From: a plasmid
DNA: 64,000 nt
Reading direction: 5' to 3' (one strand)
NCBI RefSeq assembly: GCF_055900595.2
Contig: NZ_JBVWEU010000003.1
Under the pieces are notes generated by a model. That model did not search any database and had not been told where the DNA came from. It worked only from the letters and a program-made list of their open reading frames with translations. Below are positions 6,025 through 10,599 of the stretch, piece by piece. The translations under genes were made by a program, and so were the position numbers. How positions within the stretch are numbered: position 1 is the stretch's first letter; the number at the start of each line of letters is the position of its first letter.

Positions 6025-6400
6025 CGGTCGCGCCGCCCCTGTCGCGCCGGAAACGGCGCTCCCTGCACACCTGACGGTGTGTAAGGCCACTGCGCCTGAT
6101 GGCGCAGTTGTCTGCCCTTCCGCCGCCACCCCTGCGGCCTGTTTCCCGCTGTGGACTTTCCGGGGGCTGAAGCGGCCACAACACGTTTCAGCCGTCCAGG
6201 GGAGAGATGTACCAGCCACAAAACTTTTTGCCGCAGGCGTCAAAAACTTTTGCGTCTGCCCCCGGACAACTGCCCCGTGCCGTGGCAGTCGCTGCCCCAT
6301 CGGAAAGGTCCACTGCGGGGAGAAACCCCGAAGAAGTGGACGGCAGAAGGGGCTTTCGCCCCTCCGGGGAATAACCGGTCGGCCCGGCGACCTGATTCAG
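6025..6400 (+). promoter_or_regulatory. ssi/Frpo-like single-strand promoter element (repeat copy B)
   Basis: About 370-bp GC-rich non-coding element, near-identical in blocks to 8895-9255; several short hairpins (ACACC-TGAC-GGTGT, CTGCGCC-TGAT-GGCGCAG, GGGGC-TTTC-GCCCC); directly upstream of a + strand gene block. Confidence 0.6.
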
Positions 6401-6417: not shown

Positions 6418-6852
6418 ATGACAGTCAGCAGCACGATTTCCGTTTTTTGCCGAGACGGGGTGTTCCGTACCGTTTACTGCCACCTGCACGGTGAGCCGAC
6501 CTGGAACGGTCGCATCCTGCATACCCACTATGCCACCGGTCAGCTGGCCGAAGCCCTGGTTGAACACGGAGATATCCGTTGCCTCGGTCCCCGTTGCGAC
6601 AAACCCGCCGGGCATACGCTTCAGAACCCGGTGGACGGTGTGACGGCTTATTACGGACGTGACAGTGGTTTCCGGATGGACAGTGAAGCGCGTGAGTACC
6701 GCTCTTTCAGGGAGGCTATTGCCACTGAAAGCACAGAAGAGGTGCGCTTCCATTATGTGTTCATCGACGGCTACTGGAAGGTGATGTACCGCACGCCGGA
6801 AGGCTGGAAGATGAAAGCGCTCGCGCTGGCACTGCGTCGCTGTCCGGAATGA
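6418..6852 (+). CDS. Hypothetical leading-region protein (first gene after ssi copy B)
   Basis: 144 aa from ATG 6418 with GGAGA RBS; Cys/His-rich N-terminus (CRDG...CHLHGE...C..PRC); no family recognised. Confidence 0.55.
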   Translation: MTVSSTISVFCRDGVFRTVYCHLHGEPTWNGRILHTHYATGQLAEALVEHGDIRCLGPRCDKPAGHTLQNPVDGVTAYYGRDSGFRMDSEAREYRSFREAIATESTEEVRFHYVFIDGYWKVMYRTPEGWKMKALALALRRCPE

Positions 6853-8193: not shown

Positions 8194-8205
8194 GTAAACA
8201 TCACA

Positions 8206-8231
8206 GCCCGGCAAAATGCCGGGCTTTTTTG
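8206..8231 (+). terminator. Rho-independent terminator after the rpn gene
   Basis: GCCCGGC-AAAAT-GCCGGGC stem-loop followed by TTTTTT. Confidence 0.7.
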
Positions 8232-8254
8232 TCAGCAGGAGCAGAGCAAACAGC

Positions 8255-8413
8255 ATGACGATTGCAGAACGTCTTATTCAAAAAGGCGCTCTTGAAGTGG
8301 CGCGGGAAATAGCCTGCCGGCTTCGGGATATGGGCTGGACGCCGGAACGGATTCAGGAGGCAACCGGACTTTCCGGTGAAGAACTGAAAAAACTGTTTCC
8401 TGATGAGCTGTAG
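8255..8413 (+). CDS. Free-standing Rpn C-terminal-domain-like small protein (RpnS-like)
   Basis: 52 aa (MTIAERLIQKGALEVAREIACRLRDMGWTPERIQEATGLSGEELKKLF) resembling the C-terminal tail of the upstream Rpn protein (AERLKQEG...IARQLQKTGMSFAQICQITGLSEAELKKI). Confidence 0.4.
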   Translation: MTIAERLIQKGALEVAREIACRLRDMGWTPERIQEATGLSGEELKKLFPDEL

Positions 8414-8443
8414 CCTGGCATTCTGCCAGGCTGTGAATCACGC

Positions 8444-8695
8444 TCACACATCCTCTGCCGTTTCCCCCAGTTCATTTTCCAGTCGCCTGATGATATCTGC
8501 CTTACGCATCCCCTGCATGTGAGGCAGCAGGTCACGGACTGAAAGAGCCTGGGTGGTCCTCCAGACGGTGACGTCCACCTGTTCCGCATTTTCCCAGGCG
8601 TGCCATGTTCTCTGCGTCACGCCAAATTCTCTGGCCGCTTTTTCGCGTGACCAGAGCATGCTTTTTCGCCAGATTCGCAGTTCCCAGCCGGTCAT
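8444..8695 (-). CDS. Small HTH DNA-binding protein (Cro/XRE-like), opposite strand to the leading-region genes
   Basis: 83 aa; LWSREKAAREFGVTQRTWHAWE helix-turn-helix-like segment; ATG at 8695-8693. Confidence 0.55.
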   Translation of the reverse strand: MTGWELRIWRKSMLWSREKAAREFGVTQRTWHAWENAEQVDVTVWRTTQALSVRDLLPHMQGMRKADIIRRLENELGETAEDV

Positions 8696-8710
8696 AAAAC
8701 ACCTTTGAAA

Positions 8711-8796
8711 AAGTGAAAAAACTTCACTTTATTTTATCATCATAATCATCAAATCAGCGCGATAAATAAGTGTGAAAAAGTGAAGAAATTTCACTT
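8711..8796. promoter_or_regulatory. Two identical palindromic operator-like sites AAGTGAA-N5-TTCACTT (8711-8729 and 8778-8796)
   Basis: Perfect 7-bp inverted half-sites with 5-bp spacers, twice, in an AT-rich stretch just upstream of the - strand HTH gene start. Confidence 0.55.
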
Positions 8797-8894
8797 TTTT
8801 TTGATTGTGGGTGTCGTGCTGTTTTCTCTGTTTTCACCTGTGCGGGAGTGGTGCGCCAGTGACCACAGCATGCCGTTGTTGTGCCGTCGGTTTT

Positions 8895-9255
8895 CTCCGG
8901 TCGCGCCGGATGCGGCGCTCCCTGCACACCTGACGGTGTGTAAGGCCACTGCGCCTGATGGCGCAGCTGTCTCTGCCTGTCTGCCGCCGCACTGCGGCCC
9001 GTTCTCCGCAGACGGACTTTCCGGGGGTACATACACGACCACATCCCGTTTCAGTCGTCCAGGGGAGAGATGTACCAGCCACAAAACTTTTTGCCGCAGG
9101 CGTCAAAAACTTTTGCGTCTGCCCCCGGACAACTGCCCCGTGACGTGGTGAGCGTCCCCCGTCGGAAAGGTCCACTGCGGGGAAATCCCCGAAGACCCGG
9201 ACGGCAGAAGGAGCTTCGCTCCTCCGGGAAATGACCTGGCTGACCCGGCAGTCGT
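8895..9255 (+). promoter_or_regulatory. ssi/Frpo-like single-strand promoter element (repeat copy C, oriT-proximal)
   Basis: Shares long near-identical blocks with 6025-6400 (for example GCGCTCCCTGCACACCTGACGGTGTGTAAGGCCACTGCGCCTGATGGCGCAG and CAGCCACAAAACTTTTTGCCGCAGGCGTCAAAAACTTTTGCGTCTGCCCCCGGACAACTGCCCCGTG). Confidence 0.6.
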
Positions 9256-9275
9256 GACGATGAGGAGACAATGTG

Positions 9276-10124
9276 ATGAATCAGACTTTACCCACTGCTG
9301 ACCTGAATACTGCCGGCACGACAGATGTTATTCCGTCTGTGGCTATCGACCGCATCATCGCGCAGCGTAACGAAGGTATTACACTGTTCATGCAGGCGAT
9401 GGAATGCCTGGCGACAGCGCGCAGGATTCTGCTCGATGCGTCAGGTGATATTTTTCTTTACGGGTTTGAAGACTGCGTGACTGATTCCGTTCGTCGCATG
9501 GATAAACCGGAAGAAGCGAAAAGGAATATCACCCGTCTTGCCGACCGGAAAATCTGGGACCGCCTGATGACAGATACGGGCATGTACACCTTCATGAGTT
9601 CATGCCAGCGTGATGAGTGGAACAGCCAGCTGATGAGCGACACCTGTCCTGAAATCACCCTGGACAATGTACTGGCAACATTCCGCCATCTGAATGCCAG
9701 CAAAATGCAGACATTTGAACAGGGACTGATTGATGTCTACCGGAAATTGTCATGGGATTACAGAACCAATAATCCCTGCCGTCTGGGCAAGAAAATCATT
9801 ATTGAAAACCTGCTGTACCGCTGGAGTAACGGGCGTGTGACGCTGGACTGCAGCGGACGGGAGGCACTGGATGACCTGGTACGTCCGTTTTATCTGCTGG
9901 AGGGGCGCAACGTTCCTGACTTCCGGAGCAGCATCGGGGCGCAGTATTGTGAATTTCTCGGGAACGGCGACAATATCGGTGAGTTGTTTGAAGGGGAATA
10001 TTTTACGGTGCGTGGCTACCAGAAAGGAACCGTACACATTGTCTTTAAGCGTTCTGACCTTGTTGAAAAACTGAATGATATTATTGCACGGCATTATCCT
10101 GGTGCATTGCCGCCACGAGTCTGA
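9276..10124 (+). CDS. Hypothetical protein, first gene downstream of the oriT-proximal ssi element
   Basis: 282 aa from ATG 9276 with GAGGAG RBS; no motif recognised with certainty; followed by a terminator. Confidence 0.6.
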   Translation: MNQTLPTADLNTAGTTDVIPSVAIDRIIAQRNEGITLFMQAMECLATARRILLDASGDIFLYGFEDCVTDSVRRMDKPEEAKRNITRLADRKIWDRLMTDTGMYTFMSSCQRDEWNSQLMSDTCPEITLDNVLATFRHLNASKMQTFEQGLIDVYRKLSWDYRTNNPCRLGKKIIIENLLYRWSNGRVTLDCSGREALDDLVRPFYLLEGRNVPDFRSSIGAQYCEFLGNGDNIGELFEGEYFTVRGYQKGTVHIVFKRSDLVEKLNDIIARHYPGALPPRV

Positions 10125-10209: not shown

Positions 10210-10545
10210 TCAATTGTTGTTCATATCGATGCCATCTTTCCTGCCTGAATCTGTCTTTTTAGGTGCTGTTTTAGAGGAAGAACGGCGGGATGGTTTTTTC
10301 GATTCTGCTTCCCGAATAATGTCACGAAGTGCCTTCTCTCCTACTTCATACCCTGCATTTTTGAGCGTGTCACGAACATCTGCAAGTGTATAACCCTTTG
10401 TCCTTACCAGGACAATGATGTCATCACGAATGGCATCAAGAAAATCACGCAATGTTTTCCGTTGAGCGGTGAGGTCCGGCAATTCCGATAAGGCAGATTT
10501 TGCCAGCTGGATGTCATCATCTGAGTAAAATTTTTTAGAAGCCAT
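10210..10545 (-). CDS. Hypothetical small protein adjacent to oriT, divergent from nikA
   Basis: About 111 aa from ATG 10545 with GGAGAG RBS; charged and helical, Lys/Ser-rich basic C-terminal tail. Confidence 0.5.
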   Translation of the reverse strand: MASKKFYSDDDIQLAKSALSELPDLTAQRKTLRDFLDAIRDDIIVLVRTKGYTLADVRDTLKNAGYEVGEKALRDIIREAESKKPSRRSSSKTAPKKTDSGRKDGIDMNNN

Positions 10546-10599
10546 TGGCACTGTCTCTCCGTTTCATGTTGAAGCCTGATTTTATCATCAAAAACTGAC

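Follow-up and report, generated by a model that had tools for sequence, protein, structure and literature searches.

A small HTH regulator encoded against the leading region of I-complex plasmids: a probable autorepressor with paired palindromic operators

Introduction

Many characterised members of one class of small helix-turn-helix (HTH) regulators are dimeric autorepressors that act on palindromes (PMC6765145). Aca2 of phage ZF40, from the YdiL/SO3848 group, autorepresses as a dimer, through two TTCG-core inverted repeats that it binds within the acrIF8-aca2 promoter (PMC6765145). The controller (C) proteins of restriction-modification (R-M) systems, such as C.AhdI, C.BclI and C.Esp1396I, are also of the HTH kind. 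They are dimers of about 80 aa, have a pair of palindromic operators before their own gene, and provide delay or feedback once a new cell has been entered. ArdK, KorA and StbA of the IncW plasmid R388 are negative-feedback repressors associated with a transcriptional overshoot on plasmid entry, and their operators lie before several leading or maintenance operons.

Entry itself has a transcriptional programme of its own. Hairpins of the Frpo/ssi type are promoters on the incoming single strand (PMC9849209; PMC12672017). In F and in the IncI1 plasmid pESBL such ssDNA promoters drive an early burst of leading-gene expression, and their activity fades with conversion to double-stranded DNA, without a repressor (PMC12672017; PMC9849209). 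One catalogue of leading-region genes includes a family encoded in the other direction. This is gene family 22, labelled 'HTH transcriptional regulator; aca6', which comprises 2,333 members on strand -1, their median position from oriT being 2 (Samuel and Burstein, 2024, PMC11541004). In rank it stands between DUF4942/YdiA (position 1) and the Rpn families (positions 3 and 4). Such families are flagged there only as not transcribable from the leading single strand, and operators, autoregulation or an Aca2-type relationship are not described there for family 22 (PMC11541004).

The HTH gene and its surroundings

The window, meaning the whole 64,000-nucleotide stretch of plasmid DNA that was analysed, is the leading and transfer region of an IncK2/Z-type plasmid of the I-complex. 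Its gene order is ssb, parB-like, psiB, psiA, ardA, two small ORFs and an Rpn nuclease gene, then a 65-aa ORF, the HTH gene, a structured region, DUF4942, a MobC-like gene, oriT, nikA and nikB. The segment at 8200-9300 is present in 2,048 plasmid records of PLSDB, chiefly from Escherichia, Salmonella and Shigella, with up to 98% identity. A 391-bp core (8440-8830) is 100% identical to plasmid NZ_MG825371.1. The HTH gene (8444-8695, minus strand, 83 aa) is recognised from its ORF, its annotation, its homologues and a five-helix model. A Shine-Dalgarno-like AAAGGTG, conserved in the I-complex alignment, stands 4 nt before its ATG (8700-8706, minus strand).

The succession of DUF4942, HTH gene (minus strand), 65-aa Rpn_C ORF and Rpn in the window is that of families 24, 22, 20 and 18 in the catalogue. 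Because order, position and strand in that table match the window, the HTH gene almost certainly belongs to family 22. The family itself had thus been catalogued, uncharacterised; newly described here are the operator motif AAGTG-N9-CACTT, a predicted promoter and a prediction about timing. In the searched literature the operators and any function of the HTH protein are undescribed, and a TraDIS study of an I-complex plasmid does not mention the gene.

The leading genes of the window lie on the plus strand and are directed toward oriT and nikAB. The transferred strand is the template for these genes, and therefore mRNA of the HTH gene can come only from the complement. In other words, the transferred strand has the sense sequence of the HTH gene, whose transcription has to wait for synthesis of the complementary strand. 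A first-pass annotation of the sequence had said as much, and strand geometry together with established knowledge bears it out. The same annotation took the gene to be the only minus-strand gene among the leading genes. It does oppose the leading genes, but the MobC-like gene that adjoins oriT (10210-10551, 113 aa; ORF, annotation and synteny) is also on the minus strand. At least 15 loci, drawn from different genera, keep this second gene in synteny with the HTH gene (37-67% identity).

The opposed orientation is seen in every homologue locus in which nikA, nikB, psiA, psiB or DUF4942 could be placed. The conserved layout runs from nikB and nikA through oriT and the MobC-like gene, which shares the strand of the HTH gene, to one or a few leading genes, a structured element of 400-500 nt, the operators and the HTH gene. 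Beyond the HTH gene come further leading genes (an orf120 homologue, psiA, psiB, parB-like and ardA).

In the window the structured element is Frpo/ssi-like. It occupies 8797-9272 (plus strand) with its hairpin on the transferred, minus strand, and lies upstream of the DUF4942 gene (9273-10124, plus strand; Pfam DUF4942, E 1.9e-50), which is the first leading gene beside oriT and is divergent from the HTH gene. Folded as ssDNA, the 573 nt from 8700 to 9272, which include the operator region, reach -134.9 kcal/mol (z -8.6 against shuffled controls). The stretch at 8897-9148 repeats 6038-6285, which makes two Frpo/ssi-like copies of 95-96% identity, each before a plus-strand leading block. By analogy with the described hairpins, the element at 8797-9272 would act as an ssDNA promoter for the DUF4942 gene, putatively of class 1 (PMC12672017; PMC9849209).

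Across the loci the structured element falls into two unrelated sequence classes. The Frpo/ssi-like class is found in the window, L005 and L036. The second class is about 500 nt long and is found in L004 (4098-4640), L006, L007, L009, L010, L012, L013, L016, L018, L019, L022 and L038. It is flanked by the HTH operators and the first leading gene, folds as ssDNA with a z of -4.9, and may be another class of ssDNA promoter.

The HTH protein and its relatives

The first-pass annotation also called the 83-aa protein Cro/XRE-like. As far as the fold goes this stands: the AlphaFold2 model has five helices (mean pLDDT 88), a helical fold like that of solved repressors of the XRE type. The Pfam matches, in contrast, fall short of the gathering scores (HTH_31, E 7e-5, 23.5 bits against a cutoff of 27; HTH_3, E 7e-3, 16.8 bits against 23). 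The closest solved relatives are HTH domains of the Aca2 type. By fold or sequence the nearest relatives are Aca2, Aca10, YdiL, HipB, HigA and the C proteins, which is the class of small HTH regulators introduced above.

Names offer little more. Beyond the sub-threshold HTH matches, Pfam, NCBIfam and PHROGs return only PHROG 6962 (unknown function), and a Pfam search of the neighbouring small proteins at other loci gave nothing informative. RefSeq uses 'helix-turn-helix transcriptional regulator' (WP_000148285.1), and some source annotations use 'YgeA'. The latter is a label of those annotations, unrelated to ygeA of the F plasmid. Identity with F ygeA was considered and rejected, as that gene, downstream of Frpo1, is expressed from ssDNA and efficient transfer requires it. 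The HTH-like protein AcrIE9/10a was also rejected, because it has a beta-sheet insert and binds DNA non-specifically, whereas the 83-aa protein is all-helical (PMC12248084).

How close is the likeness to Aca2? The N-terminal HTH domains are homologous and the general logic is common to both. However, Aca2 has about 116-125 aa and a C-terminal alpha/beta dimerisation domain, whereas the HTH protein is shorter and all-helical, lacks such a domain, and aligns with Aca2 only to about residue 54. Pfam DUF1870, the Aca2 family, has no match in the 83-aa protein at E <= 0.1. The operators differ as well, TTCG-N6/8-CGAA for Aca2 against AAGTG-N9-CACTT here (PMC6765145). Finally, the aca2 gene lies downstream of an acr gene, whereas the HTH gene is monocistronic and divergent, without an acr gene upstream.

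The C proteins share the HTH, the size and the paired palindromic operators before the regulator's own gene, and the HTH protein can be likened to them as a delay or feedback device after entry. However, C-boxes are adjacent, within about 35 bp, whereas the HTH operators are 45-67 bp and up to about 1.1 kb apart. C proteins also control a co-transcribed endonuclease, and there is no endonuclease gene at the HTH locus. Repressors of the ArdK/KorA type are likewise plasmid-encoded and shut down following a burst in the new host, as the HTH protein would. They have operators at several operons, whereas here the sites are found only at the regulator's own gene, on a strand that cannot be read from ssDNA. 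By analogy, the HTH protein may work like an autorepressor of the Aca2 or C-protein type, although it is placed in neither family.

The operators

Two identical palindromes lie upstream of the HTH gene, as the first-pass annotation had reported and as the sequence confirms. The proximal operator O1 (predicted; 8711-8729, AAGTGAAAAAACTTCACTT) starts 34 nt upstream of the ATG, and the distal operator O2 (predicted; 8778-8796, AAGTGAAGAAATTTCACTT) lies 67 bp away, measured from start to start. Each is a perfect 19-bp palindrome of the form 7-N5-7 with identical arms, AAGTGAA-N5-TTCACTT. With up to two mismatches allowed, this pattern has 2 matches in the 64 kb against 0.19 expected, a number reached in 1 of 100 shuffles. 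Among all perfect 7-N5-7 palindromes of the window, 12 in number, no arm other than AAGTGAA recurs.

Homologues of the HTH protein put these sites in perspective. A word-indexed search returned only near-identical I-complex proteins, whereas a full HMMER scan of 1.8 billion representatives revealed a small family that extends to about 30% identity. Thirty-five loci were compared (29 from species-representative genomes, 5 from other sources and the window), and the 34 homologues outside the window have 30-99% identity and come from many genera of Enterobacterales. A 19-bp palindrome of the form AAGTG-N9-CACTT stands before the homologue gene in 27 of the 35 loci; in the other 8 a recognisable site is absent. 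The genera with a site include Escherichia, Salmonella, Pectobacterium, Erwinia, Yersinia, Citrobacter, Rahnella, Buttiauxella, Hafnia, Providencia and Pantoea. Its start is mostly 31-35 nt before the start codon, and 43 or 63-65 nt before it in a few loci. The upstream windows, 4,950 bp in sum, contain 29 exact core sites, whereas the remaining 200 kb of those loci contain 4; this is an enrichment of about 260-fold, and the 4 outside are displaced distal operators (see below).

The palindrome also changes together with the protein. Bases 6-7 of the half-site vary by clade in step with the predicted recognition helix. AAGTG(A/T)A pairs with RTWHAWE (I-complex), AAGTGCA with RTWHDWE or RTYKxYE, and AAGTG(A/T)C with RTYKRYE in Hafnia, Providencia and Symbiopectobacterium, while Gilliamella has the helix RTYQNYE and a different palindrome. 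Variation within the I-complex is equally telling. Between variants of 84% protein identity both operators, the -10 element and the Shine-Dalgarno sequence are kept, whereas the 48-bp spacer between the operators has diverged past recognition. The first-pass annotation had read the palindromes as a repressor operator pair. The conserved position and core, the co-variation with the helix, the abutting -10 element and the survival of the sites as islands in a diverged spacer agree with this, and the prediction that they are operators of the HTH protein is strongly supported.

Does the protein have other targets? The window holds no copy of the operator besides O1 and O2. A search of a full plasmid, which the first-pass annotation had proposed, was run on the complete related plasmid NZ_MG825371.1 (92 kb) and gave two sites, both at the HTH gene, and no third. 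The next-best candidates there have 2-3 mismatches and, in most cases, a different spacer length. Because there is no other site on NZ_MG825371.1, the direct plasmid targets of the HTH protein appear to be confined to the intergenic region upstream of its gene. Phage and viral contigs were also scanned for the commonest form of the operator, AAAGTGCA-N5-TGCACTTT. None of the 76 matches has a second site, and a weak family ORF is nearby in only 2, which is the chance level. Therefore, the AAGTG palindrome is not a generic sequence of mobile elements.

A promoter that abuts the proximal operator

On the strand of the gene, 23 of 27 loci have a -10-like hexamer whose end is no more than 2 nt from the proximal operator (examples are TAAAAT, TAGAAT, CATAAT and TAAATT); the corresponding rate at background positions is 8%. 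In the window this is an extended -10-like element, TGATAAAAT (8731-8739, minus strand), which ends 1 nt before O1 and is conserved between I-complex variants; the -35 is poor. The predicted promoter of the HTH gene is placed from the -10 element alone, and by the usual 6-8 nt rule transcription would start inside the left half of O1. A start site inside an operator is a classic arrangement for steric autorepression. Thus among the homologues a conserved palindrome overlaps the predicted promoter of the regulator's own gene, as in the class of autoregulated repressors.

On this evidence the 83-aa protein is probably a dimeric HTH repressor that binds both 19-bp operators and represses its own promoter. 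RNA polymerase would be blocked by repressor bound at O1, within which the start site would lie, and O2, at nearly a whole number of turns of about 11 bp from O1, would help through cooperative binding or looping. The HTH gene would be silent as long as the plasmid is single-stranded. Once the complement has been made the gene would fire and then damp itself, giving a burst followed by a low steady level.

The distal operator

A distal site is present in about 13 loci from roughly seven lineages. The start-to-start distance is 67 bp in the I-complex, 45 bp in Pectobacterium, 64 bp in Hafnia and 55-57 bp in Citrobacter, Buttiauxella and others, and Buttiauxella has three sites, 55-56 bp apart. 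At about 11 bp per turn, distances of 45, 55-57, 64 and 67 bp correspond to about 4.1, 5.0-5.2, 5.8 and 6.1 turns. This is suggestive of operators on the same face of the helix and of cooperative binding, an argument about phase that draws on about six lineages and to which 64 bp is the exception.

A clade from Yersinia, Rahnella and Enterobacter departs from this short spacing. Here toxin-antitoxin-like cassettes are found between the two operators, and therefore the spacer between the operators accepts cargo; it looks like an insertion spot. The displaced distal operators are at 3157-3175 in L008, 3156-3174 in L011, 2050-2068 in L028, 2880-2898 in L029 and 914-932 in L023. They are intact 845-1121 bp upstream of the HTH gene, and therefore the distal site is under selection in its own right. 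Beside it stand the structured element and a terminator-like hairpin; its flanks on the cargo side are unrelated between sub-lineages. A distal operator kept 0.85-1.1 kb away suggests a role beyond short-range help to O1.

The cargo brings palindromes of its own. In L008 (3880-3935), and also in L011 and L028, the inserted operon for a RelE/HigB-like toxin and an HTH antitoxin is preceded by two perfect palindromes, TTCGTAC-N3-GTACGAA, spaced 29 bp apart. These are probably the operators of the inserted antitoxin, and they resemble Aca2 sites in their TTCG core.

What else might the repressor do?

A regulator that targets only itself is an incomplete explanation. The two operators flank an AT-rich spacer beside the putative ssDNA-promoter element. 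What if repressor bound at both of them also shuts down double-strand promoters of either direction, or stops read-through into the segment of ssi, DUF4942 and oriT in the established plasmid? This idea extends the autorepressor reading and does not exclude it. It is tentative, with perhaps a modest chance of being right. A promoter scan finds a single plus-strand promoter-like match in the window, GTGAAA-16-TATCAT (8713-8740), with its -35 in O1 and a predicted transcript across O2. However, the match is weak (9/12) and, while retained in an IncI1-type variant, it reads TATCAC and is lost in L005, the variant closest to the window. Nor is a mirrored -10 element at the distal operator, in the direction of the leading genes, conserved outside the I-complex; in those clades no -10 hexamer with an invariant final T lies beside it in that direction. 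The position of the distal operator is more favourable, as it is always at the edge of the structured element, even with 845-1121 bp of cargo in between. However, in that same clade no transcript would pass the terminator-like hairpin beyond the distal operator. A need for silencing can at least be argued, since over-expression of leading genes of the I-complex is harmful (PMC10286972).

A local role as a loop or insulator is worth keeping in view, because the module stays at the first ssDNA promoter and the distal site at the edge of the element. A broader form of the idea is that operators and HTH gene, readable only as duplex and welded to the first-entering ssDNA promoter, mark the transition from single to double strand. 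From phased sites as much as about 1 kb apart, the bound repressor would loop or insulate the segment proximal to oriT and so close the early programme, and the spacer would serve as a protected landing pad for cargo. This is enticing, but as a whole it is rather unlikely.

Another possibility, raised by the first-pass annotation, is a late switch: a protein made only once the second strand exists, which silences the adjacent ssi-driven block. The reverse orientation is conserved, and the HTH gene adjoins a structured element whichever of the two unrelated classes that element belongs to; both points speak for such a switch. The placement of the operators does not fit. They lie outside the Frpo/ssi-like element, on its upstream side, none is found inside it, and its transcription runs away from them. 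The 92-kb plasmid offers no further operator through which the block might be reached. Moreover, ssDNA promoters lose activity on duplex conversion without a repressor, and it is this conversion itself that has been credited with the shut-off (PMC12672017; PMC9849209). The proposed shut-off is not supported, and a switch of this kind is improbable.

Equally improbable is that the HTH protein is a brake of the Aca type, repressing an anti-defence operon after the burst as Aca2 does acrIF8. The leading region is rich in anti-defence genes, and 3 of the 2,333 members of family 22 are tagged aca6 (PMC11541004). However, the HTH gene is monocistronic and convergent with its neighbours, and none of the operators has an anti-defence gene downstream. 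The AAGTG core in place of the TTCG of Aca2 (PMC6765145) and the missing DUF1870 match also speak against it.

That the protein is the antitoxin of a toxin-antitoxin pair or an R-M controller protein is highly improbable and effectively refuted by gene context: despite a weak structural and sequence likeness to HipB, HigA, MqsA and C.AhdI/C.BclI, a toxin or nuclease gene is absent from the HTH transcription unit in the window and the other loci examined, there is no co-directional neighbour in the window, L004, L036 or L038, and the L008-type cassette has its own HTH antitoxin with its own operator motif.

The autorepressor reading is left as the probable one. If the HTH protein regulates only itself, then it is another small autorepressor. 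Its setting gives it a wider interest. The gene is carried by more than 2,000 sequenced resistance plasmids of the IncI1, IncK and IncB-O-Z groups, and in the contigs examined its relatives from many genera of Enterobacterales are likewise placed near a NikB-type (MOBP) relaxase and oriT. At the very start of the leading region, no other well-populated family is encoded against the transferred strand. Motif, predicted promoter and timing prediction together make the protein an easy tool for experiments on how the ssDNA-driven early programme gives way to the established plasmid.

Other features of the region

Several smaller observations concern the genes and elements around the HTH gene. Between the convergent stops of the 65-aa ORF and the HTH gene is a perfect 7-N5-7 stem-loop, GCCTGGC-N5-GCCAGGC (8413-8431). 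A U-tract is absent on both sides of it, and it could be a bidirectional RNA end or a stabiliser.

The 65-aa ORF (8216-8413, plus strand), just after the Rpn gene, is a free-standing copy of the C-terminal domain of Rpn. It has 39-56% identity to Rpn residues 264-322, weak matches to HTH_Rpn_C and to the C-terminal end of TIGR01784, and is kept in related plasmids. It may encode a small protein that modulates Rpn. RefSeq records of related plasmids also annotate a 65-aa 'hypothetical protein' at about 8729-8926 (minus strand), overlapping the operators and the structured element, which is probably not a real gene.

Finally, a gene at 6418-6852 (plus strand, 144 aa, no Pfam match) is the first past ardA and the first Frpo-like element. 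By its position it may correspond to '810' of pMS7163B, a gene whose over-expression severely impairs growth (PMC10286972).
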